Shown here: one piece after another, positions 11,539 to 52,877 of the stretch
How the letters are laid out: every line of letters begins with the position of its first letter
Numbering within the stretch: the stretch's first letter is position 1
Origin: Geosiphon pyriformis uo1
Lineage: Eukaryota > Fungi > Glomeromycota
Reading direction: 5' to 3'
Length of the DNA stretch: 64,000 nucleotides
Assembly: GCA_016748015.1 (NCBI GenBank)
Contig: JAAOMT010000760.1
Coordinates: 859,237 to 923,236, forward strand
The notes under the pieces: generated by a model
The model's database searches: none
The model's input: the letters and a program-made list of their open reading frames with translations, nothing else
What the model was told of the DNA's origin: nothing
Program-made: the position numbers and the translations under genes

Positions 11539-12518
11539 TATTACCAGAAAGTTTTGGTCTCTTTTTTTGAATGTTTGTTAATGTTGCTTTGCTGTTAATT
11601 CATGTTTTCAGGAAGTAGTTGGATCTCCAGTAACTGAATTTATCTTCAAATTATCTTCTATAATTTGAACTTGCTGGGCTTATGAGTAGAATGGCCAATT
11701 CTGTGCCAATTACTTTGTATAGTTACATTGTAGTAAACATCAACTCTTTCCCAGGAATTGCTTGTCTAAAAGTTCACTAAAATATGTAGTTACTTTGCTG
11801 TGAAAGTCAACTTTTCTACAGGAATCTTGTCTGTAGGCTACTCTAATGATTGTAATAAGAAAAGAAAAGAAAAATAAAAGAAATGTAAAAGAAATAGAAT
11901 TTTGTCAAGGGAAACGTTTTCAATCCAGGCCTGGAATCACTAACAGTTTATTGAAATTGGTAGCTAATCAATTTCAAAACGTTAGTTGAGTTTTGAGAAT
12001 TTTCCAAATGCAATAATTAAAGAGTTTTTGGTTTTTCAAATTATTTTATTTTTATTCTTTTTGTGTATGTAAGAGTGGTTCTAAGTAATAAATCTAAAGT
12101 AAGATATATTTTCTCAAAGAGAGAAGCTCTTCTTTTATACAACTTGTCATAATACTATTTTATGAACTTGAATTTTGCTATTTTCTACAATTTCACTGAA
12201 CTAAAGATATATTTCAGCGAATTACAAGTTATTTCTGTGAACTATTAAATATTTTGGTAAGCTATTAATTATTTCGGCAAATTTTTACAAATTTTGGCGA
12301 ACTTTTGAATGTTACATAGTTCGGGGTATTGCATGATTGATCATTGCAATTAGGTTACATTTGTGTTGTGTACAAATTGGGTTATTAATTAAATGACAAT
12401 TTCAAACATTTTGCTAATGTAATAAGTGATAATTTGAAATGATAATATATGCTAATTAATAATAGGAATTATAAGATAATTTTATGCTAAATAATATTTC
12501 TAATTTTGTCTAGTAACA
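11539..12518 (-). repeat. 3' LTR of element A (980 bp)
   Basis: Direct repeat of 20434-21412; tattaccag...ctagtaaca. Confidence 0.95.
12190..12305. repeat. Six ~20-bp units with core TTTCGGCGAA(C/T)T in U3 of LTR A (also ~21083-21198 and ~53845-53942)
   Basis: tttcactgaact, tttcagcgaatt, tttctgtgaact, ttttggtaagct, tttcggcaaatt, ttttggcgaact. Confidence 0.75.
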
Positions 12519-12521
12519 TAA

Positions 12522-12531
12522 CCTCCTCCTC
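12522..12531 (-). promoter_or_regulatory. Polypurine tract of element A (GAGGAGGAGG)
   Basis: Purine run 3 nt before the 3' LTR on the minus strand. Confidence 0.85.
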
Positions 12532-13206
12532 AAGACTGAGCTCCATCGAAGTCCAAGTACTGTCTGTCATTTACAAATAATAATCCAAAATTATTGAAGA
12601 AATTTGGTTTGAAAATTGTTGAAATTTCAGTTCTGTGAGCTTTCCAATGTGTTGAATCTTTAAAGATTGAAAAATTGGGTTTTGTAGTACGTTTTTACAG
12701 GTGTGGAATAGGTCATAAAGTCTAAGAGCAGCTCTGAGCCTGTAGCGACTGTTTGTTGATCCAGCTGTTGTCTTGAATTTGTTGTGGAGTTGTTTCTGAA
12801 TAGCTTTTTTTGTAAGATTTGTTGTTGTAAGTTCCAATTTCCATTTGTAGAGTGTTTTTTCAATGTGAAAATATCTATAAATTGGAGGATATTCAGTGTT
12901 TTCTTCATTGAGATACAGTTAAAGTCTTTGTTGAATTGTAGCATTTAGTGAAATACTAATCAGAGTGAGCATTAGGTTTTCTTTTAAAGCAAGCTTTAAA
13001 AGTTCTGGCAGGTAAATTCCAGTATAACTTTTTGTGTTCTTCTTATATGAGTGATATTTTTGTGAATTTGGGGCTAAATTTATAACTACTTCTGTTTAGA
13101 TATAATTAATGTGGTTTCCAGTAACAGTAATAGATAATTCAGGTATTGTTTTTAAAGCTAATATTAGTTTTTGGAATAATTGTTGAATGTTTTGAGGAAT
13201 AGTCAT
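12530..13206 (-). pseudogene. Accessory ORF3 of element A (~210-225 codons, unknown function)
   Basis: ATG 13206 MTIPQNIQQLFQKL... is in frame with track ORF 12571-12837, with two internal TAA; a shifted tail LDFDGAQS* overlaps the PPT; homologous ORFs in B and C. Confidence 0.8.
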
Positions 13207-13325
13207 TATAAGCAATTTGAAATAAAAGAAAATTATTTTTGGTGTATGGGTTTTTATGTTATTTTTGTTTTGTTTTTGTGAAATTGTTTCTAAATTATAA
13301 GAGAATAACTTGTAAAATTAAATTA

Positions 13326-16300
13326 AGTGTTTAGGTTGGAAGGTTGTTCAATGACAACTATTGGTTCTAAGTTTTGGAGAATATCTTCGGAATTGACTAA
13401 AGAAGAATGTGTACCAATTTGTAAAATTAATGGTTCAGGATTGTTTCTGGAATAATAGTGTTTCAAACTATCTCCATGTGCAACTTTTGCTAGGATTTTG
13501 TCATCAAGTTTTAGCTTGTATAATCTGTTGCCTAGGACTTCATGGATAAAGAATGGTCCATCCCATTTATTTTCAAATTTTTCACTCCATTGTTTTTCAG
13601 CTTTAGTTCTGTGTAAGAAAACTTTGTTTCCGATTTTAAATTCATTGGTGACTGGAAGGAATTTGTCATCATGCCATTCTTTTTGTTGAGCTTGGGAGTG
13701 TTCAATATGGGTGACTGTTATTCGTCATTTTCCTTCCAATGTGCTAAGCAGAGTATAGACTCTTTGCTGAAGCATTTCTTGGAAATTGTTTTCATTGATT
13801 GGTTGTGCTGGATATGTTTCCACTGTGAAACTAATTGGTAATATTGCTGTTCTTCTGTAAGTTAAATCAAATGGTGTGTGTTTTGTAGTATCTTGTTTTA
13901 GTGTTCTGTATGTTAGCAACACTGATGGAATAAAGATATTCCACTTTTGCTCAAAATTGGTTGAGACTTTGGCTAATGACTCACACAATGTTCTGTTAAA
14001 ACGTTCCACAAATCCATTTGTTTGTAGATGGTAGAGCAAAGACAGAGGTCTTTTGACATTAAATTGTTCACAAATTTTTTGTATCAGGTTGTTCACAAAG
14101 TCTGTCACCTGATCGGATAAAAGTTCAATTGGACATTCATGTCTACAAATAATGTCTTCGTAGATAAAATTTGTTACTGATTTAGCATCTGCTCGTTGAA
14201 TGGCTCTGGCTTTGGGCCATTTAGTAAGATAGTCTACAGCTATTGCGATATAATGGTTTTCTTGAGTGGTGATAGATAGTAATCCAACTAAATCAATACC
14301 AACTCAGTCAAAGAGTTGTCCAACTTTAATTGGATTTAATGGTTCAGTAGGGCGTGTTCCTTTTCTTCTTTGACAACTATCATAAGATTCAACATATTCG
14401 TGAATGTCTTTTCTCATTTGAGGCCAAAAGTAGTATTCTAGTGTTCTTTGGGTGGTGCTATTTTTTCCGAAGTGTGCTGATAAAAAATCTGAGTGCATGT
14501 TGTATAATATGGTCTCTTTTTTCTGTTCTTGTATTAATCTGAATGGTTTGTCTGGGTTTTTGAAATTTCGATGATAAATAATGTTGTTGTGTAGAAAATA
14601 TTGTTTGGCTTGTTGTTGTAGTCAATGTTTTTCATCTGGAGACCAATCTGTTGGATTGTTAATGTTTCCAAATATTGTTTGAGATTGTTGTAGTTTTCTG
14701 AATTCATTGTTTGTTGGCTCTTTTGGTTGGTTAAGTTGAGTGTTGTTTTTTGTGTTTTCTAATCTTGTCTCATTCTGGAGAGACAGTCAACATTGGTGTA
14801 AAGTTTTCCTGGTTTGTGATGTACTATGTATCGATAGTTTGCTAGAAATCCTGTCTATTGGGTTTGTTTTGCATTCAGCTGAGTATTTTTGTTTTAAAGC
14901 CATTTAAGTCCAATATTATCAGTGATAATATCGAATTCTTTGGGTCTGAGATAAAAGTTAAAGTGATGTAGGGCCCAGATTACTGCTGCGGTTTCTAATT
15001 CTGTTGCAGGATAGTTCTTTTTGGCTGGCTTTAATGTTCTACTAACATAAGCAATTACTCGCTCATTTCCATTGTTATCTAACTGTGATAGGATGGCACC
15101 AAAGACAGTATAAGAAGCGTCAGTTGCTAACCGGAATCGGTTGCTGAAATCTGAGTAGGCGAGAATTGGAGCTATTGGGAGTTTTTCTTTAAGTATTTCG
15201 AAGGCATTTTGATTTTATTCTGTCCATTTGTATTCGACTTTTTTAGTAGTAAGCTGTTTGAGAGATTTTGCAATTTCTGAAAATCCTTTGATGAATTTTC
15301 AGTAATAGGATGCTAATCCAATAAATTCTCTTAATTCTGTGGCATTTCGTGGAGTCTTGAAGTTCTTGACAGTACTGATTTTTCTGGGGTTTGATTTAAT
15401 TTCATCTTTGCTAACAATGTGACCGAGAAAAGCTAAACTTGTTTTTCCAAAGTAGTATTTTTCAATGTTCAGTTTCAATCTTGCTTTCCATAATTGTTGA
15501 AAAACTTCTCACAGGTAAATTAAATGTAACTCGAAAGATGGTGAATAAACATCAGTGTTATTAAGATAAACTACTACTGATTTCCAAAGGAGGCCTTTGT
15601 AAACAACATCTATGAGTCTTTGAAATATTGCTGGTGCATTGCATAATCTAAAAGGCATTACATTGAACTCGTAATTTTCTCCTTGAGTGGTGAATGCTGT
15701 TTTGGGGTGGTCTTTGGGATGCATAGCAACTTACCAGTATCCACTCTCTAAATCTAATGTTAAAAAGTATTTGGACTTTCCAAGGGCATCCAACATGTTA
15801 TCAATTCAGGAAAGAGAGTAGGCATCTCTAATGGTGACACTGTTGAGTTGTCGATAATCAACACAAAATCGTATCTTTCCATTTTTTTTTTAACTAGGAC
15901 CACAGGTGAGGCCCATGGGCTTATTGATGGTTGAATAAGCCCATTGTTAAGCATCCATTGTACTTCTTCTCAGATAAATTGGTGACTTTTTAGAGCAACT
16001 TGGTAGGCTTGTTGTCGCCTTGGTTTGGCATCTCCTGTATAGATTTGGTGTTAAACCAAATCAGTTCTTCCTAAGTTATTGTTGTTTTCAGCAAAGATGT
16101 TGGCAAACTTTGCAATTAGCTCTGTGAGCTAGTTTTGTTGTTGTGGTTCAAGTTGTTCTATGTTGATTTGAAATACTTTTTCCATGACAACATGGTAGTT
16201 TTTAGAGCTAGGGTTTGGATTGATTTTTGGTAGTGAATGTTCAATGATTTCTGGAAAATTGAGAACTGTCTGGAGTAGTTTTTGTTGAAAGATGTTACTG

Positions 16301-19300
16301 TAAATGACTCCAATTTCTAAGTTATTTAATAGAACTATGAGGTAATTGTTGGGATTGTAAAAAGTAACTTGGACTTTCTTTGTTCTTTCTGGAATATAAA
16401 TGTTTGGAACCAAAATGTTATGTTTCAAGCAGACTTGTTCATTGGACTCAAAAATTTGTTGTGTGGTTGTTGGCTTTGGACAGATGTAGATTTCCAGATG
16501 TTTTTCAAAGGGTGAGATGGTAATTGGTTGTGGAAGTCTGAGAATCTGGTGGAATTCGTTTTGTGTGTTAAGAGCTATATTAACTGAAACTGTGAATCAT
16601 CCAGTTGAACTAAAACTTTGGGTTCCTCTATCACTTTTTCCTAATTGTTTTCTTTGACTAACTAGTTGCAAACCCAAAATGTTGATTAGGGATAGGTAAA
16701 TAGCTTGGGCAATTTTTTTAGCATGGTTGATCTTGAATGGTTTGTCAGTTTCATTTTGGAGCATTACTGTAATGTCTTCCGTATATCCAACATCGATTAT
16801 TCCTCCTCTAACATTGATTTTTTTGCTTGCCAGAGAGGACCGGGAGACAATTTGAACCATTGCTCCTGGTGGGATTTCGAGTGCAATTTTTAGGTTGATT
16901 TTTGTGAGAGATTTGGGTTTGAGAACAAGAGGATTCTTGTTTAGATATCTTAGGTCATATCCAGCATCAATTTTATGTGCTTTTTCAGGTTTTATTCCTT
17001 GTCCATTGTTGTTAAAGTATTTGAGTTGTAAGGCAGGCTGACTTTTGATAAAATAGATGGGTGTTGTTTTAATTTCTTCTGTTGCTTCAGGTTCTCCAAA
17101 TTCAATTTTGTTTTCATCATTTTCACTGGGCAGGGGAATGCTAAGAGCATAGCATTCAGGGCACCATTGTTCATTACAAGACATTATGCATTCTTCACAC
17201 AATTTAACGTTCATTTGCTCTAGCCATTAAACTTGAGCTTTTTTGGTCAGGTAAGTGTGACTGGCAATTTGGTAATATATTTCTACTTCATCTTCATAGT
17301 TGTATCCAGCAATTTCAAAGGTGTATGCAATGTATTCTGATTCTTTCATTTGACAAACATTTTTTTGAGTGGCTCCATTGATTAGAGCCATTGCTAGATC
17401 AAAAATCATTTCAGCATCATGAGGGTAATGATACAGTTTGTTGAGGGCGCTGTTGTAGACAGTGTCAAAAAAAGTTCCTCTTTTGACTTTTTCTGAAATT
17501 GATAAAGCATATTGGCAGGTTTAATTGCAGACTCTTCCTCTCATTGCTACATCAATCCAATTGCATTCTTCTGGTAGCATATCTTCACAAGTCAAACAAG
17601 AGGTGTTGTCCCATTTTTTACTTCTTTTTATTAGATGACCCTATCGTTTTCTGTGGCACGTCTTGCAATAATAACAAGTATGATTTTCATATTCTTCTTC
17701 AGGTGAAATGCAGGCTCTCATTGATGAGAGTTTCTTGTGGCAATCTTTGCATTTGAGTGGAATGTAAGAGTGTTGTTTCCGTGGCTCTGGTTTTGAATAG
17801 GGGACATTCCATCCAAGAGTTATTGGTTCTTTTGTTTCACAAGGATTGTTTGTTGAAAAATACTGTTGTTTAGTTTCATCAGCCCAATTGAAGATTGATC
17901 CAAGTGCCATGAAAGTTTTGATTGTTGGTTTTTTTTCTTCTGGTTCGAATTCAAAAGCCGGGGCCTTTTCGGAGCATTTATTGAATGTACCACAAGTGAC
18001 AGATACTCGGGCATGTTGTTCTTGGTAGAAAATTTGTAGTTCTTGGGTTTCCCAGTCTAATTTTGCATTGGCTTTTTGGAGCCAATCATTTCCGACAAGG
18101 GTTTGATATTGGAGAACATCCATTACAAGAACTTTGATTGGAATGGTGATTCCATTAAGAGTGAATAAAAAATTGTCGATTTCTTCTACTGGAGTCTTTT
18201 TCATGTCATTAGCAGTGACAATAATTGTCTGAGCTGGTCAGTTAACGTTTCTCTTTAGCTGCTGCATCAATTGATATGTGATGATACTTCTAGTGAATCC
18301 ACTGTCTAAGATCAAACGAATTGGCTTTTTTTCTACTTCAGCTTCTGTGTACATTATAGTGATGGCTTTTTGCTCATTAGCCGCTGCATTGCTAAGCAAG
18401 AACGGTGATTCATTTGCTTCAAAATTGAAGGGAAATATATCTGAAAGATTGGCGTTTTCAGCAATTCTGGCTGGTAGGATTGTGGTAGGAATATACAAAG
18501 GGTTTTGTTGTTGTGCTGTAGCTCTACCTTCTGAGGGTGCAGTATGGTGAAAATCCTGTTTTTCTGGCATTGTTAAATAACTGGGTTGAGTGTGGTAGTG
18601 GTTGAGTTTTGGTTGAGTGGAATTTCGGGGAACTAATTAGTTGTTCAAACTGATTTTATTGTTGTTTACATGGTATCAGTTTTGTGGTGTAAATTGATTT
18701 TGTGTAATCAGTCTTTGAGCAGGTACTTGATAATGTTGTGTAGGTGGTTGTTGGTATTGCTGTTGGATTGGCTGTGGGGTGGACTGATAATAGTTACTTT
18801 GGTATTGGGGTTTTGGTGGATAGTAAGCTGGTGGTGATAGTTGATAATAAGATTGCTGTGGTGGAGAGTAATGTTGATTACTCCTATTTTGTTGGTCTCA
18901 TTGTAGCTTTCTGCAATCTCTTTTCCAGTGGCCAGAGATTCTACAGTAATGGCAATTCTGAGGCTGGTTATTGGAAAGTGGTGCAAAGTTATTTTGATTT
19001 CGTCTTTGGGGTGGTTAATATCTTTGGGGTTGTTGTTGTTGTTGGTTGGTAAAATAGTTTTCGACCTTTTTTGTAAGTTGGTCAATTTTTTCCTCAGCTG
19101 CTGAGCTGGTTTCTCCAATTGCCAAATTTACAAGTTTTGTACAATTGGCTTCTTCCATAGCCATTTCATATCTTTTTGCATGTTGGATGGCAGAGTTCAA
19201 ATCTTTTGGGGCATGTGGGCGAATCTTTTTAATTAGTTTATCTTTTAGACCAGCAATAAATTGATCCAAGATTTGAGCATCAGAATAATAATTGTTTGTT

Positions 19301-20433: not shown

Positions 20434-21412
20434 TGTTATCAGAGGTTTTTGGTCTCTTTTTTTAAATGTTGTTGATGCCTGTTTGTTGTGAATTCACGTT
20501 TTCTGGATGTGGTTGAACTTTCAATAACTGAATTTATCTTCAAATTATCTTCTATAATTTGAACTTGCTGGGCTTATAAGTAGAATGGCCAATTCCATGC
20601 CAGTTATTTTGTATAGTTACATTGTAGTAAACATCAACTCTTTCCCAGGAATTGCTCGTCTAAAAGCTTACTAAAATGTGTAGTTACTTTGCTGTGAAAG
20701 TCAACTCTTCTACAGGAATCTCGTCTGTAGGCTACCTTACTGATTGTAATAAGAAAAAAAAAGAAAAATAAAAGAAATGTAAAAGAAATAGAATTTTGTC
20801 AAGGGAGATGTTTTCAATCCAGGCCTGGAGTCACTAATAGTTTATTGAAATTCGTAGCTAATCAATTTCAAAACGTTAGTTGAGTTTTGAGAATTTTCCA
20901 AGTGCAATAATTAAAGAGTTTTTGGTTTTTCGAATTATTTTATTTTTATTCTTTTTGTGTATATAGGAGTGGTTCTAAGTAATAAATCTAAAGTAAGATA
21001 CATTTTCTCAAAGAGAGAAGCTCTTCTTTTATACAACTTGTCATAACACTATTCTATAAACTTGAACTTTGCTATTTTCTACAATTTCGCTGAACTAAAG
21101 ATACATTTTGGCAAACTACAAGTTATTTCTGCGAACTTTTAGATATTTTGGTGAGCTATCAATTATTTTGGCAAATTTCTACAAATTTTGGCAAACTTTT
21201 GAATGTTATATAGTTCGGAGTATTACATAATTGATTATTGCAATTAGGTTATATTTGTGTTGTATACAAATTGGGTTATTAATTAAATGATAATTTTGAA
21301 CATTTTGCTAATCTAATAAGTGATAATTTGAAATGATAATATATGCTAATTAATGATAGGAATTATAAGATAATTTCATGCTAAATAATATCTCTAATTT
21401 TGTCTAGTAACA
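20434..21412 (-). repeat. 5' LTR of element A (979 bp)
   Basis: tgttatcag...ctagtaaca; TATAAAAG on the minus strand near 21025-21032. Confidence 0.95.
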
Positions 21413-31500: not shown

Positions 31501-33860
31501 TTTTCAACCACTGATCCAACAGCAAAAACAAGAAACTGAATAGATGTACTTTTTAAAACCAAAAAATTATCATCATGAAAAAACCAAACTTGCTATATAC
31601 AGACGAAATCCAATCAAACAGAATCTTAGAAAAAATTTTTCTGGCAGTTTTGATTAGAGTAATAAATTAAAGTATTTGTAAGAATCTTATTCCAATTATA
31701 AGGTTTAAGAATAATTAAAACCCAGACTTTTTTCCACAAAACAGACATATCACTAACAGACAAATACATATTTAATAATTCTAAAAGACATCCTGCTATC
31801 TTATTGCTACTATGCTTTCAAAGTTCATTAGAAATGCCAGACAAACCAGCAGTTTTGCTATCAGATAAACCACTAATTACTAAAAGCAATTCCTCCATAC
31901 TAATTTTTTTCATCATGTCAGAAAAAGCATTATCTTTTACATAATTTAACAATACATATTAGTAAATCCAAAAATCAAACAATGTCACAGACACAATCTG
32001 CTTTCTTATTTAACTTTTCATAATTACATTAACACTGAACTTTATCTTCTTTGGTTCCAAAACCAATTTACTATCTACTACCAAATAATTTAGAACCACT
32101 TTTTAAAAAAACTGATCTAAAATGCTTCTAATCATATCATTTTTATCAGAACTAAAATTTTTTATGTGTTTCTTAATTGCTTTCTTAATAAACATTTTTT
32201 CAGCCAATTTTGGCTTATATATCTTGAACCTTCTGTATATTTTATAAATTAATGAAAAATGTTTGATGATATCTATAAGTTTTTTACCATTTTGTATTAT
32301 GTTTGCAACTATAATAGCTTTATTCTTATTTAAAATTGACCATTTTTTAATAAGACAATCAAATCTAAGTATATTATTTAAGCCTAACTTTTTAACAATT
32401 TTGGCAATTAACAATTCCAACCCAAAAAACTTAGAAGACAGTCTGTTTTTTGAACACTGAAATTAACTGAACCAATGTCTTAAAAATATTTTATCAGCTG
32501 ACTTCACCATCATCTTTTTCAGTAGCATTTACATAACATTCAAATCATTACAAGTCTTAGTATTTAAAAACCTATTTCTTACTACCAAAAGCTTGATAAA
32601 AGAATATTTCTTAAATTGTATCTACTTGGCACCATTTGCATTCTTGATTTTAAACTTCTATTAATTTTTATAAGTTTGTTTACATAAGCCATTTAAATAA
32701 ACATTCAAGAGTCTACTCAAATCAATTAACACTAAAACAGTCTTGTAATTAGTGTCAAAAAATGTAGTTACTAAATCAACTACATAATAAACAACTGCTA
32801 ATAATAAGCTTTCACTGACAAAAATATAGTCTAAAACTTTATTAACACCTATCAAATTGCTTTAAGTTAAAGCTTTGACCAATAAATGTCTACCAAATAA
32901 GTTAACTAAACCCAAATCCAAAAAAAACTTGAAACTTGCACTTTTTTTAGACCTATTTTCATTGAAATTCTCATTTAAAACCACAAAATTACTAGAGTTA
33001 ACAGCTTTAGCAATAAAAAAATTGATTTCTAAAGCCTAATTAAACCTAGTTTTAGCAGAAACACCAGTATACAAATCCAAAATTGTGACTAAGAGCTTGT
33101 TTTTAAAAAAAAGCTGTATTAAAACAATATAACCAAAAATCTCTTTTATCTTAGAAATATAACAAACCATAAAATTGTTCATAATAATAACAACTCCAAT
33201 ACTAAAAAAACTTTTCTCAAACCAAATATAAAGATCCATACTCTCTTTAACTTATTTGCAATTTATGGCTTGACACTAGATCTCAACTTTGTTTCTGTTA
33301 CAAAAAAATTATAGTTCTTGAATTCACATACCAATGAACAATGTCTTCTTGCTTAACAGGAACATTAATATTTCTAACATTACAAGTAGCAAATTTTCAC
33401 ACCAAATTTGTTATTGAGAATAGAAATTTTTTGTACTCAAATTAAAATTATCTACTTTAGCCATTAGGCCCATAATTGTAGTTGACAAATTATCAATGTT
33501 TTTTTTTAGCTTTAACACAATAAACATATCAAAAACTACTACTTTCACAACAGTTTTACTATTAGTGGCTGTATTTAAACTCTCATTTATTATTATATCT
33601 GCCCCTTAATTCTGTGATAAAGAGGTTACTAATAGCTAAAATCTAGGGCTAAGCTAAGAAACTGTTGGCCTAAGTGCATCTAATCTCTTAGCTAACTCAC
33701 CAACTTGCTTTACAAGGCTGGTGAGACTATGTTCAAGAGTTGCAAATCTATCATTTATTTCAACAAACACTAAAAAGAGAGACTTTATTTCTAAAGAGGA
33801 GTTAAAATTAACTGAATTATTTTATATAGAAAAAAAAAAGAAAAATCAATTAGCAATCAT
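28586..33860 (-). mobile_element. LINE-b, 3' part: end of ORF1, ORF2 (APE-RT-RNase H-C-terminal Cys/His), 3' UTR, A-rich tail
   Basis: ORF2 from 33414 (I/M)TNLV*KFATCNVR; LVLQDMHKAYN-like; VFFDDIIWV (~31090-31120); RNase H VYTD..STMAELQTVAL; ends ~28730. Confidence 0.9.
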
Positions 33861-34808
33861 AAAAAAAAATACAAGAAAAATAATAAAAAAAACAGATAAG
33901 AAATATAGACCAATAAGAAAATAATATTGAGCACATTAATATATTGCTAATAAATAATGATATATTGCTCAGCAATGTGAGCAATATTAGTAGATTAAGA
34001 CATATTGCTTAGCAATATGAACAATGTTAGTAGATTAGAACATATTACTCAGCAATGTGAGCATTGTTCAAAAAATTATAGCACATTGCTCATGAATGTA
34101 TAAGATCTTATAGAACATTAATTATATATATATAGCGAAAGTATTAAAAACAAAAAAAACAGAATTCATAACTAGAACTTACAATTAAAATATCCAGTTA
34201 AGAAACACAGTTAAAAACAATTCAAAATTCACATTACATATCAATAAATTATTAATTACTATTTGAATCTATATTATTATTGCTTGATTAAAGAATATTA
34301 ATTATTTCTACTTTATCTATATTCTATGTTAATAGAATCTAACTCTTAATTACACTAGAACAATAACTCTTGAACATGACTATTGACAGAATACTAATTT
34401 CTTTTTTTTCTTTTATTTTTTTTAATTTTTTTAATTTTTTTATCTCTTTTGTTGTTTGTTGTTTACTAACTAATTTAAAGAACTAAGTACTAAGTAATTG
34501 ACATCAAAAATAACCTGGTAAAAAACCCAAAAATAAGGATATAAAATTTATAACTTAATGAAAAGCTTACCAAAAGAACACAACTATCAGAATAAACTAG
34601 CTACTATACTGAAAAAAAAATTTGACAAAGTCAATATTTCAGGAGACTACTAAAAACAATCATTAAATCTTTGTCTATTATACAAAGAACTTCAATCCAA
34701 AATCTTTAGATATGAAAATCTTTAGAGATTACTAACATAATTTAGCTATTAAGCACCAAATTACTGGTGTTTTATTTGTATTAACACTTCAAATAATCAT
34801 TTGTAATA
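33861..34808 (+). repeat. 5' LTR of element B (first ~8 nt lost)
   Basis: Matches 52878-53638 + 54609-54812; ends tgtaata (from tgtaaca). Confidence 0.9.
33960..34072 (+). repeat. 40-bp tandem repeat (~2.7 copies) with palindrome ATTGCTCAGCAAT in U3 of LTR B (also ~52987-53098)
   Basis: Units begin at 33961, 34001 and 34041. Confidence 0.88.
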
Positions 34809-34810
34809 TT

Positions 34811-34822
34811 TGGTGTTTCTTG
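34811..34822 (+). promoter_or_regulatory. Primer-binding site of element B
   Basis: TGGTGTTTCTTG 2 nt after the LTR. Confidence 0.75.
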
Positions 34823-34872
34823 TAAAGTATAATTTAGCAGAGAATCAGTATTAACAACAACTATCTCAAACA

Positions 34873-37800
34873 ATGGCAGAATTAGAAAAACTAAAAACAA
34901 ACCACTTGGGATTTATAAAAGCTTTATTTTGACATTATTAAACTCACTTAGAATTAACAAGTAACCATTGGCCAGCAGAATCAATTTTCAACTTTTATGT
35001 CAATAGAAGGATTAAATTTTATCTAAGAAACCAAAGAGATCTAAAAGCAGTACTTACCAATTTTTATAGTAAATTACTTCAGAACACTACACTTTCACAA
35101 AATTATTTGTTTACTTTAATAATTACAGAAATCAATAGAGAAATTGAAAAACATACCAGACAGAAATTTCCTATTACTTTTGCAGACAACAACAAAGAAA
35201 AATTACAAACATCAATAGGAATACTAAGAAACATATAACTATCTACTTGAAAGAAATCAAAAATAGTTTTACTTATTTACTCATTATACTATCATATACC
35301 AAGAAGTATTATCAACATAACATCAACAGGCATGTTTACATTAACTGTAAAAACACTATCAGCAAAAATCACATTTCAAAGCCAACAAAAAAAAGCTGAC
35401 TTATTGAGAACTTATAGTGATTACTTTAAAGAATTTAAATCATGATTATCAACATCATCAAAATTTCAATCACCACTATCTCAACCCAATTTTGGAACTG
35501 CTAGTCTTTAGAAAATAATTGACTCTGAAAAAGAAGAAAATAAAAATCAGAAATTTAATTATCAAACTCTAATTGTTCCAATTTAGCAAAACCTAAATAA
35601 TCTAAACTCATCTTTTATTGTTTCCCAAAACTTACTTTCAGTAATTATAATCAATTTACCACTAGTTGCACCAATTGTTAAATCCCAATAACAGTTACAA
35701 CAACCACTTTAACCACAATCATTACAACAATTGTTACCAATAGCATATGTACCAATTATTAAATTAAAAAAATTCAATAACAAGAAAGACAATATTCAAG
35801 TTTGGTTAAATAATATCACAAAAGCCATTACTGCCAATAATTGGAATAATGCTAGAGCTTTCCAAGCCATCCTATATTTTTTTTAGAATATTGCTAACTT
35901 ATAGCATTATAGCTTAATCCAGAAGCCCCAAAATTTCAATAATTTTAAAACTGAATTTATGAGATATTTTAGTAATAATAACAGTATTAATTACTTTACA
36001 ATTGTTTTTACTATCATCAAACAAAGAGAAACTGAAATTATCACCACATACCTAGAATGTTTTCATAGAAATCTGCACCAAATACAAGCAATTAACACAA
36101 ATTATTTTATAGTACTACAGATTTTGAACCAGTTTATTTATGGTCTGCACAATAGCATCTTATAACATATATGTTTATTATATTCACAAACATTTCAAGA
36201 CACAATTACACATGCCTAAGATTTTAAATCAGCCAAGCTAAAAGCCAATCACATCCAAGCTATTAATCTAGTAATAAATTAGACTTTAAGTTAAAACAAT
36301 TTAATAATTCCATTAATCAAAAATTAAAAGAATACTTAGCTAACAATCAAGTCATTTATTAACTTTTACAATATTGCAATAATTCAAAAAATTCAAATTA
36401 TCTTTAAAATTAACTGCATCTATTATCATCAAACAATCAACAGTGGTGACAAAAAACACGTAGTTATCACATTTGTGATAAACAAAAACATTTGCAATTT
36501 GAATATTACATCTGGTTAAATAATCAATAATCAGAAAATTAGTATCAAAACTCTAATCAGCAATTTCAAACTCCAAATTATCAACCAAATCAAAACTTAT
36601 ATTAACTTTATTACACCCCAATAATGCAACAAGCAATATACTTACTACTAATTTATCAGTCTTTAATATTAGTAATATATCAACTACAGTCACAAATTAT
36701 CTATTAACTACAACAACTTCAAACACTATTACTAAACTCAACTTAAATGACATCTGAAAATCAAAAACCAAGAATTATGCATATCTGACAAAACTGAAAA
36801 TCAGCAATAGTAATTTATCAATCAATCCCCAGTTCCTCAAATTAATCATTAAGATTATGTCAATAGAGTTCAAATATGGGATACACCCAAAACCTGAATT
36901 TCCAGAATTACTTAAGTCTTCTGATCAACTCAGAAGACACCTAATTCAGCAAACAGAAATCCAAGCCCAACTATTTATCTACAATATTCTATTTGCAATT
37001 ATTACTGAAAACAAATCACTTGTAGTAATATTTTCTTTTAAAATAGAAAAAACAACAACAACCATACCTCTATTCAGTGATACTGTTCTTGACACCAAAC
37101 TCATTATAGCAATGTACACAGATGCCAAAGTTAATGGTCACTATATTAAACTAATTCTTGATAGTGATTCAGCAAGCAGCATTATTACATGACAACTTAT
37201 GAACTAATTAAGTTGCTAAGTTAATTATGCTGCCAGCACCAAGATTATTACAGCCAATAAAGTGACCAAAACTCTAATTGGCAAAATTAATGACTTTTTA
37301 TTCAAAGTTAATAGCATTATCATGCCAATCAAGGTTTTTGTTATGGAAGCCACCCAGTACTAAGCTCTAATTGGTAATAACTGGTTGTCCAAAACCAATG
37401 CAGTACTTGACTGGAACACTTAGGAATTACAACTGAGCCAAAATAGCTAAAACATTCAAGTACTAACTACTTGTAATTATTTCAAAACTATTACCAATAA
37501 GCAACTACTAATTGAGTTTAAAAAAAAAGAGGAAAAACCTACCTGAAAAATGTATTAAGTATTATAGGCTGAAAAAAATTACAATAAACTACCACCAATC
37601 TCAGACTGAAAAAAACAAGAAAAAGCAAAAGCAAAAAAAGAACTTGAGACAACTATTTCTACTTATATTCTATATACTACTCTTTATGTCAACTTACAGT
37701 ATTGTCAGCCAAAGCTAGTTTGTATTAATTATAACAGAAAATTGTCATTAATGAGCATATGTTGTGGTAATAATAAGAAATAACTTACAGCAACAAAATA

Positions 37801-40800
37801 TTACTGTTGTTTATGTGTTTTTAAATATTTTAGACAACCAAAAAGACAAAGAAAATAGGACAATAAATCTTGTTTTACATGTAAAATAATTCTTTCTGAT
37901 GAAGGAATATAAAACAACATTTCTGGATCTTAATTAATAATTAGATGCAAAAAGAGACTCCAATTAACAATATTTAAAAATAAGCACTAAGACATCTGAA
38001 AGACTATTTATATGACAAACATGAGATCTAAGAAATAGTAAGTATCAAAGTTGAAGATACTACATCCAGTGAATTACTGAAAATTAAAAACAACTTACTA
38101 TCTTTTTTTGAATCCAAATATGTCCTAACTTTCAATGTTTTTAATGATATTGAAGACAATTTAGAACAATTCTACAAACATTATCAAAATTTAGCATTAA
38201 CTAGAGAAAAACAAAAGCAGTATTTGGAGCAACTTAACACAAGACTGTATAAACATTGCTTAATTTTTAGTGACTTCAAATATTGTGATAATTGTAATCT
38301 TATCTACAATCTACTACCACATATAATCTATTTGATTCCCAAAAAGAAAAAACCAACCAGTAAATACACAGTGGAATCAGAATTAAAATTCAATCCCAAT
38401 TCAGACTTTGATAATAATAACAACAATGATTCCAACTCTATTTATTATGGCAACAACAATAACAATTCAAATTCTGATTATAATCCCAAAAAATATATTG
38501 CATTTTCAGATTTGTTGATGAAGCAAAAACTAAAATGGTTTAGTGATAATAAGAAAAATATTATGTCAGAATGCATACATAATACTAATACAGAGTTTGA
38601 TTTCAAATATCCAAGAAAAATGGCTATCAAATTGGAACCATATTTACATATTAGCATTAATCTAAAAATAGTACTGGAAATTTTAGCAACAATAATAGTT
38701 CAATTAACATCTAGATCTAGTTTAACAAAGAAAAAAATTAACATTAGAGGAAGAATAATTAACACAGAATACATAAAAAATATCATTGCAATACTACAAA
38801 ATAAATCAAAAAAACCATAAATAATTGAACCAAATAAAAAAATAGCATAGAAAATATTTCTACCTCTGATAAAAATAGCTTCTTTAGTGCCAGTAAAAAC
38901 AAGAAAAAAATTAGGAATCACAGCCAAAAAGAAAAATAAATTCAGATCAATGAATAGAATAGATATATCAGTCAATATGGCAAAGAAAAAACCATTGATA
39001 AGAGAAAAATTATCTCCACTTATTAATCAGTTTCTATTCTGCCATATGACCAGTACATATTAATAATAGAAAAAAAAGTAAGAAATCAGTCTCAGATTTT
39101 TGAAGCAGAACTTACAATTTATGAATCAGGAAAGATTGGAATTACCAATCTTTACATATCAGCCAAGAATTATAAACACATTAAAATTTCTATCTACAAC
39201 ATGACTGGAGACATTATTAAAATACCAAATAAAAGTATTTTCAAATACTTAAGCATTAAAGTTAAAAACCAACCACCAAACATCATTCTAAATTTTCTAC
39301 AACTGTGTAAATATGTAGATATCATATCACAAACTATATATAAATAAGAGAAATATTATTTGTTTCAATCAGAACAATTAAACCAAATGAATTTGGGAAA
39401 CTTAAACTCACTTCAATACATATAGCTCAAAATGTTACTCAATAATTTTACCAATATCTTTGTGAATAAAAATGAATTTGGCAGAACAGATATTATCTAA
39501 TACTAGATTAAAACTGAAGATGTTATGCCAATTAAACAATGAGCATACTAAGTACTATTAGCAAGCCATAAGATCATCCAACAAGAAATTAACAGAATAT
39601 TGGACAACAGATTAATTCAATTATCAATGAATCTATAATTATTACCAGTAGTACTAGTCCAGAAAAAGAATGAAAAGATTTATTTTTGTGTGAATTACAG
39701 AAAACTCAATAGTATTACTCATAAAAATAGCTATCTAACTTTACAAATCTAAGAATTATTTGATGCTTTTGGAGGAAAAAAATGGTTTTTCACATTAGAT
39801 TTGGATAGTAATTACTGACAAGTAGCCATGAATTCAGCCAACAAAGAGAAAACAGCATTTACTACACAAAAAAAAAATTTTGAATTTAATATTATACCAT
39901 TTAGCTTAATAAATGTATCAGCCATTTTTTAATGGCTTATAAAAATTATTTACATTGGATTACTATAGAAATTAATAGTAGTCTACTTGGATAACACCAA
40001 TGTATTTTCCAAAATATTTGACAACCATTTTTATTATCTTCAATAAGTGTTCAAAAAATTAAGAAAAGCCAGATTAAAATTGAATACAACCAAATGCTTT
40101 TTTAGTAAAACAAAACTAAAGTTTTTGAAACATGTTATAAGCAAAAATAATATCAAGACAAATTTAGACAAGATTGAAATTGTCAAAAACTTTTTAGTAC
40201 CAACAAATCTTATAGAATTAAGAGCATTCTTGGAATTTATTAGATACTATTGCCATTTTATCCAAAATTTCTCCAAATTGGCTTAATCATTTCATCAGCT
40301 TTAAGCCAAAAATATGAAATATGAATGGATGGAAATCCAACAAAAAGCTTTTGATATTTTAAGAAGAAAGCTTATTTAAGCTTTAGTACTGATCTATTTA
40401 GATCATAGCAAACTATTTATTATTACTATCAATGCATCAGATCAAGCATTGGAAGCTGTACTATCTCAAAAAAAACCAGATAAAAGAAAACACTCAGTAG
40501 CATACACCAGTTAAAACTTAAGTCCAGCTGAAAAAAACTATGAAATTTTAGCATTAGAATATTTGGCTATCTATTGGGCTGTTATTATATAGAAAAAATA
40601 CTTGAGTTAAAAGTTTGATATATACACTAATTACAAAAAATTGACATTAATCCAGAAACAAAAATTTGAAGATAACTGCCATACAAAATAAAAAATAGAA
40701 CTTTTACCATTTAATTATACAGTACATTATAAAAAAAAAGAAAATAGAAATGCTAATAATTTGTTATAAATAAAACAATTCTAAGAATATTTCAACCCAA

Positions 40801-41494
40801 AAATATAACAAAAGATGAACACACAAAAATATTTACAATTCTAATATTATATTAATACCCAATAGTTTAAGGAAAAATTATCTCAAAAAAAACAAACCAA
40901 CATAAAACAACAATTAAAATATTTTATTACTTACCTAAATATACTATATTAGAAAAACAAAAAAGATTCAAACCAACTATTCAGAGTAATTACAGAACCA
41001 AAAAAAAAACAATACTATACAACATGTACTCAGATCTAACAGCAGAACATTTTTATAAAGAAGCAACTATGGAAAGAACCAAAAAAAAATATTATTGGCC
41101 ATTAATAAATTCAGATATTATCTAATATGTGCAAAATTGTGATGCTTGTTAGAAAAGAAAAGAAACAAAATCCAATGAACTACTAAAACTAATTAGAGTG
41201 GGATAATTATTTGATCAAATTGAAATTGACTTAATTAGACCATTAATAATAATCAGTAAAGACAATTATTATATAATAGTAGTCATAGATTATCTCATTA
41301 AATAGCCAAAAGTGAAAGCAATTTAAAGAACAGATGCAAAATTTGTAGCAGAATTTGTTTATTAAGATTTGATTTGTCAATACAGATGTTCAAAAAAATT
41401 ATTATCAGATTAAAAAACTTACTTTGTAAACAAAACACCAACAGAATTAAGTTAAAGATTTAGAATTAAAAAATTATTATTATCACCATACCAT
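34873..41494 (+). pseudogene. Gag-Pol of element B up to mid-integrase
   Basis: MAELEKLKTNHLGF; LILDSD protease; Cys-rich insert; dUTPase remnants (LTSRSSL, GRIINTEY); VYLDNTNVF; INASDQAL; breaks at LLSPYH. Confidence 0.88.
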
Positions 41495-42437
41495 TGTTAC
41501 AGTTAATTATTTGAAGTTTTAAAACAAATAACAAACTTATAACTTGGTGCTTAATAGCCTATACAGTTGGTAATATCTAAAGGTTTTGATAAATTTGAAG
41601 GTTTTGATTGAGTTCTTTGTATAATAAACAGAGATTCAAGTAGTGTTTATTCATAGCTTTTCAGAATCACAATTCTGTCAATTTTCTTTCTCAGCTTGGT
41701 AACCAGTACTTTTTTGATAAGCAATCCATATTTCTTATGTGTTTTATCTACTTGCAAGGGTCTTTTACCAGACAATCTTTAATGTCAATAATCCAGCACT
41801 TAATCCTTAATTAATTAGTAGAACAACAAAGAAAACAAAATAAAAAAAATAAAAAAAATTAAGAAAAAATAAGAAAATAAGCCAAAACAAAAAAAAATTA
41901 GTATTCCGTCAATAACTGTAATTAAGAGCTATTGTTCCAGTGTAATTAAGTATTGGATTTTATCAACATGGAGTGTTAATAAAAGGAATAGTAATTAAAT
42001 TTTCAAACAAATAACAATAATATGATTGGATAATAATAAGTATATTTTATTTGATATTTAATAATTTCATTTCTGTTAATAGTGATTATTCTTGAAATGA
42101 TTAATAAATAAGTAGAAATAAAAATTTTTAATCTGGAATGGATGCTTTTTTTGCTTCTAATGCTACTGCTATATATACATAATTCTTTTTACACAAGAAA
42201 TTCTTTTTCTTTGCTAGATTTTTTCAAAATTCTTGATTTCTTAAAACATCCAGGATTTTCTGAAAAATTCTCAACTTTTCTAAAATATCTTGAATTTTCT
42301 GAATAATTTTGGATTTTCTGAAACATCCAAGATTTTCTGAAAAAATTTTTTTTTTCTCTTATTTTAATTGGCTAATTTATAGTCATGTGTTTTTCTTATT
42401 TTCTGATTATGTATTATTTTTTTTTCTAAATATAACA
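41495..42437 (-). repeat. 3' LTR of element C (943 bp)
   Basis: tgttacag...tataaca; direct repeat of 50647-51463. Confidence 0.93.
42215..42345. repeat. ~20-bp degenerate tandem units (TTTTCTGAA...) in U3 of LTR C
   Basis: Repeated gattttctgaaa / catccagga. Confidence 0.7.
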
Positions 42438-42450
42438 TTATTTCTTCTTT

Positions 42451-43099
42451 TTAATATTGAGCTCTGTTAAAATCTTCTAATATTTTTTATTGTAATAATT
42501 CTATAACTTCTTTTTCTAAGATTATTTTATCTATTTTTTTATGAAGTTCCTTAAACTGGCTGTTGGTTATTCTTTTTTATTGATTAATAGATAAGTTACT
42601 GATTTTTGGTTGTAATAGTATTTTTGGATAGTCTTGAAAGATAGTATATATTTGGTATATCGTTTTGATGTATATATCCGAATTAGATTTTTTTTCAATA
42701 AAGTTTTCTATTTCTTGTATAATTTTTTGATCAAAAACTCTTTTGGTTTGATCTGGATACAAGTTTTGAATCATTAATTTTTGTTTCAGATGCCAATAGC
42801 AATATAAAACTGGAAATTGTTTTTATTCAGTAATTCCAATTTTCTGTTGTTATCTCTTTTAATTAAACAATAACAGTTGGTTTTTCAAGAGTGCTTTTTA
42901 TCTTCTCAACAATTTTGTTAATATTATTGCTAATTTCTTTATGTGTTCATTGATATGGTGTAGTTTTTTTCCTTTCTCTTTTAGTGTTTTTATAACAGAT
43001 AGTTTAATGATTGATTGTTATTTCTATGTTTATTTGTTGTTGATTTATGGCCTAAAATAATTGTTGTGCTAGTTGGTAAATGTGGTCTGAAATTTCTAT
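42451..43099 (-). pseudogene. Accessory ORF3 of element C
   Basis: (M)EISDHIYQLAQQLF...QFPVLYCYWHLKQKL...IYQIYTIFQDYPKILLQP...EDFNRAQY*; includes track ORF 42577-42774. Confidence 0.78.
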
Positions 43100-43149
43100 T
43101 TTTCTGTTTTTTGTTATTGTTCTATGCTTTGGTCTCTTATATATTGTTT

Positions 43150-46100
43150 TGGTAAATCAGATCAACATGTTTTGTTTCAATTTGTATGATTACTTCCAGA
43201 TCTTGTGAAATTTTATCTGGTCTCATTAGTATTTTTTGTACTTTTAGTTGTGAAATATTATTGGTGAATAATAATATGTGATAATAAGATTTTAGTCGAT
43301 CATCATGTGGTGTTTTAGTTAAAATTTTGTTGTTCTATCTTAGCTTATATGCTCCATTTCCCAAAAATTTTTCAATGTGAAATGATCTGTTCTATTTGAA
43401 ATCGAACTTTTTACTCTATTGTTTTTCTGTTTTGGTACAATGTAGAAGTACTTTGTTTCCAATCTTAAATCCAATTGATTTGTTTGGTAATTGGTTATCA
43501 TGCCATTTTTTTTGTTTTTCTTGTGACTTTTGAATATTATTAGCTGTTTTTTGTTGTTTGTTTTCTAAAGTTTCTATTAAGTCATATATTTTTTTCAACA
43601 ATGTTTTTTGGAAATTGTCTTTTGTTATTGGTTCTGTTAAATATGTGTTGATTTTTATTTTAACTAGTAATGTTGCAGTTCTACTATATACTAATTCAAA
43701 TGATGTCACTTGAGTGGTATCTTACTTTATTGTTTGATAAGCAAATAATACTGATGATATATACAAATTTCATTCATTCTGGTTTTTTTGGCTGATCTTG
43801 GCAATTGCTTCACACAATGTTCTATTGAACTTTTCAACTAAACTATTTTTTTGTAGATAGTATGGTAATAATAGTAGTCTTTTGATTCCAAATCTTTGAC
43901 TTAATTCTACTAGTGTTCTGTTTACAAAGTGAGTTTCTTGATCTGATAAAATTTTTTTTGAATATTCAGGTTGACAAATTAGATCTTGATGAATGAATTT
44001 GGCTATAGATTCTGCATCTGCTCTTTGAATTGCTTTTGTTTTTGGCCATTTTGTGAAATAATCTATGGCTATTGTAATATATTTGTTGCCTTTGCTGGTA
44101 ATTATTAATAGTTTAACTAAGTTAATTCCAATTTAATTGAATGATTGTCCCACTTTGATTGGTCTTAGTGATTCACTAGGTCTTGTTTCTTCTTTTTTTT
44201 GACAAACATTACAATTTTGAACATATTGTATAATGTCTGAATACATTAATGGCCAGTAGTATTTCTTTCTGGTTCTTTCTATTATTGCTTCTTTATGAAA
44301 ATGTCCTGCTGTTGAATCTGAATGCATGTTGTATAATATTGTTTCTTTTTCTGGTTCTGCAATTACTCTGAGTAGTTGTTCTAGATTTTTTTTGTTTTAC
44401 AATATAATATATTTTGATAAGTAATAAAATGTTTTGATTATTGTTTTATATGGTTTTGTTTTTTTGGAGATAATTTCTTCTTGAACTGTTAGATATTAAT
44501 ATAGTGTTGGAGTTGTTAATATTTTTGTGTATTCATCTTTTTATTATATTTTTGGGTTGAAATGTTTTTAAATTTGTTTCATTTGTAACAAACTGTCAGC
44601 ATTTCCATTTTTTTTTCTTTTTTTGTAATGTACAGTATAAAAAAATGGTAAAAGTTTTATTTTCTATCTTGTATGGCAATCATCTCCAAATTTTTGCTTC
44701 TGAATTAAAGTTAATCTTTTATAATCAGTGTATATATTGAATTTCTGGCTTAAATATTCTTTCTATTTTATAACTGTCTAATAGATTGCTAAGTATTCTA
44801 ATGCTGGAGTTCTATAGTTTTTTTCAGCTGAACTTAAGCTGCAATTAGTATATGCTATTGGGTGTTCTCTTCTATTCAGTTCTCTCTGAGATAGTATTGC
44901 TCCCAACACTTAATCTGATGCATCTGTAATAATGATAAATAGTTTGTTGTGATCTGGATAGATCAGCACTGGTATTTGGATGAACTTTCTTCTTAATATA
45001 TCAAAAGCTTTTTGTTGAGCTTTAGTCTATTTATATTTAATATTCTTGATTTGGAGATAATGCAGTGGTTGCACTAATTTGGAAAAGTTTTTAATAAAGC
45101 AGCAATAGTAGTCTGCAAATCCCAAGAATGCTTGTAATTTGGTCAAGTTAGTGGGTGCTAAAAAGTTTTTGACTATCTCAATCTTATCTGAATCTGTCTT
45201 AATGCCATCTTTGTTTATAATATGCTCCAAAAATTTCAGTTTTGTTTTGCCAAAAAAACACTTAGTGGCATTCAACTTTAATTCTGCTCTTTTTAATCTT
45301 TCAAATACTTGCTGGAGATGATGTAGATAAATATTAAATGTCTTTAAAAATACATTAGTGTTGTTCAAGTAGACTACTACTGATTTTCATAACAATTCAG
45401 TATAAACAATTTCTATGAGTTACTGAAATATGGCTGGGGCATTTATTAAGCCAAATGGCATTACTTCAAATTCAAAATTTTTTTTCTTTGGTAGTGAATG
45501 CAGTCTTTTTTTTATCAGCTGGATTCATGGCTACTTGTCAGTAACCACTATTTAAATTTAATGTTAAGAACTATTTCTTTTCTCTAAAAGCATCAAATAG
45601 TTCTTGAATTTGTGGAGTTGGATAACTGTCTTTATAAGTAACTCTATTAAGCCTTTGGTAATCTACACAAAAGCAGATCTTTCCATTTTTTTTATGGACT
45701 AGTACTACTAATGACAACCATGAACTCATTGATAGTTGAATTAATTTATTGTCTAAAATTCAGTTGATCTCCTGTTAGATGATTTTATAACTGGTTAGTA
45801 GTACTTAATATATTCTTTGTTTAATTGGCATTGTATTTCCAGTCTTGATCTGATATTAAATGATATTAGTTCTGCCAAATTCATTTTTACTGGCAAAGAT
45901 GTCATTGAAGTTGTTTAGTAACATCTTGAGTTGCATTTCTTGAAGTGGATTTAAATTCCCCAAGTTAATTTGTTCTAATTGTTCTGGCTGGAGCAAATAA
46001 CATTCTTCTCATCCATAAATTGTTTGTAATGTAATGTCCACATATCTACACAATTGTAAAAAATCTGAAATAGTGTTTAGTGGTTGGTCTTCAACTCCAG

Positions 46101-49100: not shown

Positions 49101-50583
49101 GATTGATTGAATCACTGAACTGCTTTAATTTGAAATCCAAGTCAAATGATTCATTTATTACTAAATTCATGGCTTGGGCATAGTTGGTTTTGAGTTCAGC
49201 TAATTCAAAGTTTCTGATATGGGTGATGGCAGCTTAAAAGTCAGCTGGATGTAATAGATATATGTGTTAAAAAATGCTGCTGCATAATCTGTAAATGAAT
49301 TGATTTAAGATTTGAGCCATTGTAAAATAATTGGCATCAATGGCTTAAATTTGTTACAGATTTCTGTGGAAATGTTTTAGATAGATAGTGACTGCTTTAG
49401 TATTTCTTTGTTTAATGGTAGTAAAGATATTGATTAAGTGATTGATGCTGTTCTTATTACTGAAGTATCTTAAAAATTCTAGTTTAAACACATTAAATAT
49501 TTGGGATTTCTGGGCCAAGCTTTGATATTACAAGTTAGCAGTATTTTGCAAAAAATATGGGATTGTCTAAAGGGCTCTGTTGTTGTCTTAATTATTAGTT
49601 ATAATTGCTTTGGTGACATCATTTATATAAGCTTAGATGTCATCTTCTTTGTTGATAAATTTTTCAAGTTTCACTATTGGGGTAAATGCTATTGGTGCAA
49701 TTGGTAATTGTTGTTAAAGTGGTTGTTATTAAAGTTGTAGTTATAGTGGTGATGCAGTAGCTAGTGGTAGATCAATTATGATTACTGAATATAAGTTCTA
49801 CTGATTAATAATTATGGAGTTTGGATTGTTTTGATTTGGCTGAGTTTGAACAATTAGAGTTTCAGTTTCCTGGTTTTCTGTAATTGGGTTTTGATAATTA
49901 AATTTTTAATTCTTATCTTCCTCTTCTTTTGATTTCATTATTTTCTAAGGACTAATGGTTCTGAAATCAGGTTGATATGGCAATGATTGAAATTTTGATA
50001 GTGTTAGTAATCACAAATTGAATCTTTTAAAGTATTAAACATAGGTTTCTAATAGATTAGTTTTTGCTTGTTTACTCTAAAATGTGATTCAGGCTAATAG
50101 TATTTTTGTATTTGCTATGGATGCATCTGTTAATATGATATTAATAGCACTTTCTAGTATATAGTGGTATGATAGATTAGTTGGTGATTCAATTCTTGTT
50201 TTCTTCCAAGTAAATAGTTGTATTTTCTGTAGTGTTATTGCTGGTGTTTGTAGTTTTTTCTTGCCCTTGTTTGCATAGATAATTGAATATCTTTGTTGAA
50301 TGTAATTTTCAATTTTTTGATTGATTTCAGTAATAATTGATGCAAAATTATGATTTATTGGTAGGCTGGTATTTTGAATTAGTTTATTGTAGAAATTTTT
50401 TTTTGCTGACTTAGTATCTATTTGTGCTCCTAGAAAATATGAAATCCTTTTGTTAACATAAAAATTAAAGGCTAATTTGGCTAATAGATAATTGTTGATT
50501 AATTCTAAGTATTGGCAGTAGTTTTGGAATAAAAATTTGGCAAATCCTAAATGGTTTGTTCCTATTCTTTCTGATTCTGCCAC
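43150..50583 (-). pseudogene. Gag-Pol of element C (Gag, PR, Cys-rich insert, dUTPase ~46400-46800, RT, RH, IN)
   Basis: VAESERIGTNHLGFAK; CYNCGKQ; GFVLRY..FRSNL..IINTRYMGNI..IAQTIF; YLNNTNVF; ITDASD; HSDSTAGH..YYWP..CNVC. Confidence 0.88.
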
Positions 50584-50632
50584 TTTTGAATGGTTGTTTG
50601 TTGGTACAGGTTCTCTGTAGAATTATACCTTA

Positions 50633-50644
50633 TAGAAAGCACCA
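50633..50644 (-). promoter_or_regulatory. Primer-binding site of element C
   Basis: TGGTGCTTTCTA 2 nt inside the 5' LTR. Confidence 0.75.
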
Positions 50645-50646
50645 AA

Positions 50647-52170: not shown

Positions 52171-52221
52171 AACCAAAATAATATAAAAAGACACAATATA
52201 TGTAACAAAAACAACAAAAAA

Positions 52222-52863: not shown

Positions 52864-52877
52864 AAAGAAGGAAATAA

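Follow-up and report, generated by a model that had tools for sequence, protein, structure and literature searches.

What is encoded between the integrase gene and the 3′ LTR of three decayed Ty3/Gypsy elements, and what might its product do for them? The elements, named A, B and C, lie in the window, i.e. the whole 64-kb stretch of Geosiphon pyriformis DNA analysed here. An initial annotation had described a conserved, non-envelope accessory open reading frame, ORF3, in each of them. We find that a non-chromovirus Gypsy lineage has, in ORF3, a conserved third gene, located between a separate integrase gene and the 3′ LTR. As for its function, we weakly favour the role of an LTR-binding regulator.

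Gypsy elements with a separate integrase frame

Element A runs on the minus strand from a 5′ LTR at 20436..21412, which adjoins a TGGTGC-type primer-binding site, to a 3′ LTR at 11541..12518. Its two LTRs are 91.9% identical, and genomic contigs span 30 of 30 bins of the element. Element B, on the plus strand (33815..54812, both ends approximate), is split by element C (41497..51462, minus strand), which is nested inside the integrase of B, and by a solo A-type LTR (about 53640-54606) that sits in the 3′ LTR of B. This triple nesting at 33815-54812 shows 4-bp flanks that resemble target-site duplications blurred by transitions. B and C represent a single pol family, with 73-76% nucleotide identity, and the RT region is common to all three elements. 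As in Gypsy elements generally, the order between the LTRs is gag, protease, RT, RNase H and integrase, with a primer-binding site and a polypurine tract (PPT). Pfam matches in A comprise the Ty3 capsid, aspartyl protease, dUTPase, RNase H, H2C2, rve and SH3_Tf2-1. The dUTPase-domain frame of A lies at 16597..17226 (minus strand), and B and C also have a dUTPase, a domain already known from fungal Gypsy elements as described in PMC2864245. Between the protease and the dUTPase of A there is a long Cys/His-rich stretch (about 17350-18100, minus strand), for which the frame tested gave no Pfam match. Elsewhere in the window we noticed further decayed repeats, at 30763-33736 and 59243-62210, at 54832-56381 and 62387-63995, and at 24296-28713 (pairs 65-76% identical); none of them matched Gypsy pol or ORF3.

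The integrase of A occupies a frame of its own (13323..14707, minus strand), with its own Met at 14707, and comprises an H2C2 zinc finger, the rve core and an SH3 domain. The preceding gag-PR-dUTPase-RT-RNase H frame is closed by a TAG at 14759..14761 (minus strand). Among 379 genomic contigs that cover this junction, no other letter reaches at least 2% at the TAG, and two window-specific changes nearby appear at almost 100% in the same contigs. A stop after the RNase H end motif, a variable spacer of 8-17 codons and a conserved Met are found in A, in C (about 44570), in B (about 40780) and in L001 (772-799), the contig that encodes the metagenome homologue P0206. The integrase of these elements is thus predicted to be a separate ORF rather than part of one Pol polyprotein. 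At its C-terminus in A, Pfam found no chromodomain, the terminal frame matching SH3_Tf2-1 only; by the integrase chromodomain, the elements are not chromoviruses.

The spacers are AT-rich. In A, the one that separates the integrase stop from the ORF3 ATG (13207..13322, minus strand) is also poor in G, has no upstream ATG and holds one TAG behind a pyrimidine tract, a candidate splice acceptor. To be expressed, ORF3 would depend on splicing, on an internal start of transcription or on re-initiation.

ORF3 copies, their ends and their relatives

The sense ORF reported 3′ of the integrase is present in all three elements of the window. ORF3 of A (13206..12487, minus strand) has 239 codons with an ATG at 13206, and shows 85% identity to the intact protein P0004 across all 239 aa. 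The window copy is interrupted by in-frame stops at 13098, 12921 and 12573, all three of which are sense codons in 23 of 23 models of 239 aa with an A-like start. In C, ORF3 (43099..42451, minus strand) has a mutated start codon, stops and a 1-nt frameshift near 42830, and it ends just before the PPT. That of B (about 52222..52863, plus strand) is broken by stops and, in an A-run near 52636, by a frameshift; it is 63-68% identical to the G. pyriformis model P0143. Intact G. pyriformis models are 239 aa long in family A and 244 aa in a further family, D. ORF3 is a real gene; in the window, each of the three elements carries a dead copy. The initial annotation had called for a mutation-corrected consensus to verify that the frame is open; as intact natural copies exist, it was not needed. 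In a search with ORF3 of A, the best 120 of 157 matches are all G. pyriformis hypothetical proteins, with 59-89% identity, and well over a hundred 'hypothetical' Geosiphon gene models are hereby reassigned to a retrotransposon gene.

Homologues follow integrase wherever their context is visible. In addition to the 3/3 elements of the window, L001 displays the order RT-RNase H, stop, integrase with SH3, stop, 316 nt, an intact ORF3 of 230 aa, PPT and the start of an LTR; its pol is 53-54% identical to that of A. Among 235 stored proteins, 36 match integrase, and in 36/36 the integrase part precedes ORF3. These models, in which the integrase SH3 is fused to ORF3, are gene-predictor chimeras and thus count for position only, not for a fusion protein. 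For the metagenome homologue P0200, which has a read-through tail (see below), the same genomic position is likely. ORF3 is therefore a sense additional ORF in the accepted meaning, lying between pol and the 3′ LTR, in sense orientation, in most copies.

The end of the protein differs from what had been described. ORF3 of A had been thought to stop at 12530 with a DFDGAQ motif, but the true frame runs to 12487: it continues across the PPT and closes 30 nt into the 3′ LTR, which places DFDGAQ out of frame. Nor is a DF.GAQ motif a conserved C-terminus of the whole family, since F.GAQ(F/Y)-stop occurs only in B/C/D/F-type families. Among the 235 proteins, 84 have a read-through tail, 35 have a GAQ-type end and none has both. 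The feature shared by the elements at this point is a motif at the DNA level, GAGCT(C/T)A, a few bases 5′ of the PPT. The GAGCTC-containing motif and the PPT of A lie at 12522..12544 (minus strand), within 12522-12560, and the motif is likewise found 5′ of the PPT in B, C and L001. In L001 the counterpart was seen at about 3085-3115. This motif is possibly a cis signal for reverse transcription or packaging. Overlap of a coding sequence with the PPT and U3 has a precedent in the lentiviral Nef gene.

ORF3 had been proposed to align across diverged LTR families. The A and C peptides quoted in support are present, except that one reads ITNSQFKEL instead of ITTSQFKEL. A direct match between A and C is marginal: no C row is found among the tblastn matches with A, and a family-A HMM hits ORF3 of C with an E-value of about 0.3-0.6. 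The homology itself holds, because D-family proteins match all three window copies. P0127 (244 aa, full length) matches C at 7e-16, B at 1e-11 and A at 3e-8, its N-terminus also matching C, and P0131 matches A at 6e-10 (all window-scale E-values). Family D was reached through a chimeric model (42 of 540 candidates, all Geosiphon). A word-based search with the ORF3 core of C found nothing, as that core is too decayed.

We also searched 1.84 billion representatives with an HMM and obtained 85 matches at E<=0.001, of which 68 were new. The 20 new ones that were looked up comprise 3 metagenome clusters and 17 Geosiphon models that extend ORF3 to further families; they include no named host gene and no non-transposon Glomeromycotina protein. 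The link to an expanded, uncharacterised Glomeromycotina host family that the initial annotation had suggested was thus not found, although it could have escaped a profile built without metagenome rows and run for a single iteration. P0200, P0206 and P0232 are intact metagenome homologues. A tree of 17 selected rows puts P0200 and P0206 next to family A, with values of 88/87 (not starred), and separates them from the rows of D, E, B/C and F. ORF3 is thus conserved in metagenome relatives as well as in six or more Geosiphon subfamilies, the families being about 20-30% identical to one another. The most distant homologue observed (P0232 and P0234 clusters) has 196 aa, an E-value of 9e-4 and both modules of the predicted fold, with neither tail type. 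Pattern scans yielded no relative, whether in metagenome contigs with the A alignment or in viral contigs with P0200 and with YhcG. Searches of PDB sequences with ORF3 returned importin-5 only (E 0.14-1), and PHROGs gave scattered families of unknown function, the best E-value being 0.0012 for one protein.

Constraint, predicted fold and possible functions

Between B and C, differences in ORF3 amount to 56/169, 27/170 and 68/170 at codon positions 1, 2 and 3, respectively, a deficit at position 2 with p=1.7e-5; transversions number 23, 10 and 33. The NG86 dN/dS is about 0.26 (bootstrap 0.14-0.41; 0.55 and 0.90 in the shifted frames), similar to the 0.25 of RT and not close to 1, although NG86 is skewed by post-insertion transitions (integrase gives 0.55-0.60 in its true frame and less in a shifted one), so that the codon-position counts weigh more. 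These patterns indicate that ORF3 is under purifying selection, with the conservation required of a sense additional ORF between pol and the 3′ LTR (aORF-3S). Such constraint, along with a fixed slot that is kept in a second organism and in families with about 20-30% identity, argues against ORF3 being a gene captured from the host, or a neutral passenger, devoid of a role in transposition. A distant host family is still conceivable, given that a single sensitive profile search is the basis for judging it; however, named host genes were found for 0 of the 20 matches looked up. We consider a captured gene or a passenger largely refuted and very improbable.

ORF3 also diverges faster than pol. 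Between B and C, transversions at codon positions 1 and 2 affect 33/339 sites in ORF3 vs 4/506 in RT, and those at third positions affect 33/170 in ORF3 vs 23/380 in integrase (p=5e-6). This might reflect co-evolution with its own site, conflict with the host or recombination, all of which fit equally well; it is compatible with a protein that co-evolves with its own target. It would be unexpected for the tight partner of a conserved enzyme, which bears on the idea that ORF3 is an integrase cofactor or a chromatin tether that steers integration in place of the absent chromodomain. In favour of that idea are the integrase that ends in SH3 with no chromodomain match, the invariable location of ORF3 3′ of a separately encoded integrase and the nested insertions of the window, where B has received both C and, within its LTR, the solo A-type LTR. 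Nesting is nevertheless expected in a genome for which LTR elements are reported to make up 41.2% (PMC11952901), and the structural search revealed no reader-domain fold. We find a cofactor or tether unlikely.

The product had been described as a soluble, basic, helical, element-encoded protein. Our model and the sequences bear this out for a predicted soluble, mostly helical protein, but not for its basic character as a family trait: the pI is 7.0-9.7 in 7 full-length Geosiphon A/D proteins and 5.4-6.3 in three metagenome homologues. No transmembrane segment was detected, the best 19-residue Kyte-Doolittle mean being at most 1.29 in 12 proteins, and the N-terminus is predicted to form a non-hydrophobic helix and a hairpin. 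With no env match in Pfam either, the view that ORF3 is not an envelope gene stands, and no confident match to a characterised env or host protein was found. These features make it very unlikely that ORF3 is a structural or particle protein, or a degenerate env-like protein for nucleus-to-nucleus or hyphal spread; it does occupy the env slot in the sense orientation, but the soluble helical model matches no viral fold.

A first model, from a shallow alignment, had a pLDDT of 43, and its fold search was meaningless. The model of P0206 from a 75-row alignment has a mean pLDDT of 79, and about 90 in the core. It predicts an alpha-beta-beta head (residues 7-38) with a helix at 7-20 and strands at 25-29 and 34-38, then a disordered or flexible linker and a helix at 54-66, and finally a helical core (82-220) with helices at 82-93, 100-119, 126-141 and 146-160, two short ones, and a last one at 185-220. 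Among 10 subfamily groups, the conserved motifs are Y.Y(F/Y).(I/L)G..L, G(K)TN followed by (K/R)AA.RLY..F, and L(L)...I..N.IG.(I/L)T...F. The best-kept positions cluster in a turn and the next helix, namely N145 (9/10 groups), K/R151 (8/10), L156 (9/10) and F160 (10/10), and position 155 is Q instead of R in 4/10. The same groups have no invariant catalytic-type residues.

Comparisons of this model with known structures gave weak hints. Foldseek returned nothing at E<=0.001, with no clear match in the PDB or BFVD, nor did a second look with VIA yield one. A wider search of 48,161 chains gave a best Z of 4.7, to unrelated proteins, and matches to helix-turn-helix (HTH) proteins, i.e. Spo0J (Z 3.9; 92 aligned, rmsd 5.1), SigmaF (Z 3.8; 57, 2.4) and the DNA-binding domains of KorB (Z 3.4; 97, 5.3) and ParB (Z 3.3; 59, 3.1), and the head resembles the MinE specificity domain (Z 3.8), all these scores being within the stated noise of the tool. 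We thus supply a confident structural model that has no clear match among solved folds, which is not proof of a new fold. The Pfam family matched by most members is DUF1016_N, with 10 of 75 rows, all of family A, and a best E-value of 0.015. In Atlas, a DUF1016 cluster ranked 20 with a score of 0.85, and the D-family core had no usable match. HHalign against our own 11-sequence DUF1016_N alignment placed two conserved motifs in register, with a score of 22.6 that exceeded 40/40 block shuffles, yet at a probability of 1.5-7% and P of 0.005-0.035, with the family selected post hoc among about 25,000. The likeness to DUF1016_N is therefore a lead, not membership.

The U3 regions provide candidate targets. 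Four 19-nt tandem copies of a CAGAAAATCC-like repeat lie in U3 of C (42219..42343, minus strand; shuffled maximum 2). U3 of B has 5-6 copies of a TGAGCAATGT-like repeat (52989..53120, plus strand; shuffled maximum 2-3), unlike those of C, and the A-type LTR has 3 copies of a weak TTGCCGAAA-like repeat (53845..53920, plus strand; shuffled maximum 2-3). Three copies, near the shuffled level, are present in L001. The repeats thus differ by family, even between B and C, whose alignment reaches 73% over integrase and ORF3 and 71% over the distal LTR but leaves about 320 nt of U3 unaligned save 38 nt.

Our preferred reading, with a probability of about 0.45, is that ORF3 is a soluble HTH-type DNA-binding protein that regulates in trans the U3/LTR of its own element. 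It draws on the weak Spo0J, KorB, ParB, SigmaF and DUF1016_N hints, on the conserved turn-helix and on the family-specific U3 repeats. Helix 126-141, the conserved G-K-T-N turn and helix 146-160 would form an HTH-like unit, which would read the repeats and turn transcription up or down in the manner of the foamy-virus protein Tas, and the head may serve for dimerisation. Several observations count against this: no fold match rises above background, the metagenome homologues are acidic overall, position 155 is not consistently R, and the U3 repeats of A and L001, at 3 copies, are near shuffled levels.

Differences between element copies are mostly transitions (712 of 799 differing places, run X1), an excess that points to methylation-driven decay. 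It is tempting to speculate that ORF3 is instead an anti-silencing factor, which would have RNA or a silencing protein of the host as its ligand, or would bring demethylation to the element. Its fast evolution together with its conservation would suit this role, and some LTR elements carry enzyme cargo, such as the AlkB-type ORF of orchids described in PMC12786077. However, Pfam and PHROGs searches gave no enzyme or RNA-binding family match, the invariant catalytic-type residues that an enzyme might show across families are missing, and a sequence-specific version would itself bind DNA and so overlap with the LTR regulator. We regard a role in anti-silencing as improbable. A third gene kept across diverged Gypsy families is a candidate for what has allowed these elements to stay active under heavy C-to-T decay. 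The intact natural copies P0006, P0127 and P0206, together with the candidate U3 sites, make the function of a non-env extra ORF directly testable.

Comparison with known systems

In a literature search with thin coverage of subscription journals, we found neither the ORF3 family nor a separate integrase described for these fungi. The proposed DNA-binding unit is reminiscent of ParB, Spo0J, KorB and DUF1016_N (PF17761), with which ORF3 would share a helical core and a Gly-Lys turn before an amphipathic helix, at background-level scores. In contrast with them, it has neither the nucleotide-binding domain of ParB nor a PD-(D/E)XK nuclease, and its context is a eukaryotic retrotransposon.

As for regulators encoded by retroelements, Tas/Bel1 of foamy viruses is described as binding the LTR promoter and transactivating it (PMC4929722). 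Tas/Bel1 comes from vertebrate retroviruses, with no detected homology to ORF3. Both are small non-structural ORFs adjoining the 3′ LTR, and the suggested regulation of the LTR by ORF3 would extend the likeness. Taken further, the lineage might resemble a complex retrovirus in having three cistrons, one from gag to RNase H, one for a stand-alone integrase and one for ORF3, where ORF3 would be a captured prokaryote-type ParB/DUF1016-like HTH regulator of the LTR, co-evolving and exchanged as a cassette with the U3 repeats; this composite scenario is, in our opinion, rather unlikely.

Among plant elements, the TRP28 ORFs of Retand have been proposed to bind DNA and regulate transposition (PMC11963269). 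Retand is likewise a non-chromovirus Gypsy element with a conserved ORF between pol and the LTR; unlike ORF3, which is in sense orientation and has no Pfam match to TRP28, the TRP28 ORFs are presented in that report as antisense and plant-specific.

The closest parallels are in position and conservation. Sense additional ORFs between pol and the 3′ LTR were described as aORF-3S by Vicient and Casacuberta in 2020 (PMC7264820), a fungal Gypsy 'add. ORF' of unknown function has been reported (PMC2864245), and extra ORFs in the same slot are also covered in PMC12786077. Searches in Pfam found no sequence link between ORF3 and the ORFs described. The plant sense aORFs presented in PMC7264820 are mostly env-like with transmembrane segments, unlike ORF3, which has none; ORF3 also differs from described aORFs by its association with a separately encoded integrase and by the clade whose frame reads through the PPT into the LTR. 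With the same slot, orientation, family-wide presence and conservation as the aORF-3S and the fungal add. ORF (PMC7264820, PMC2864245), ORF3 belongs to a known kind, the extra ORFs of LTR retrotransposons.
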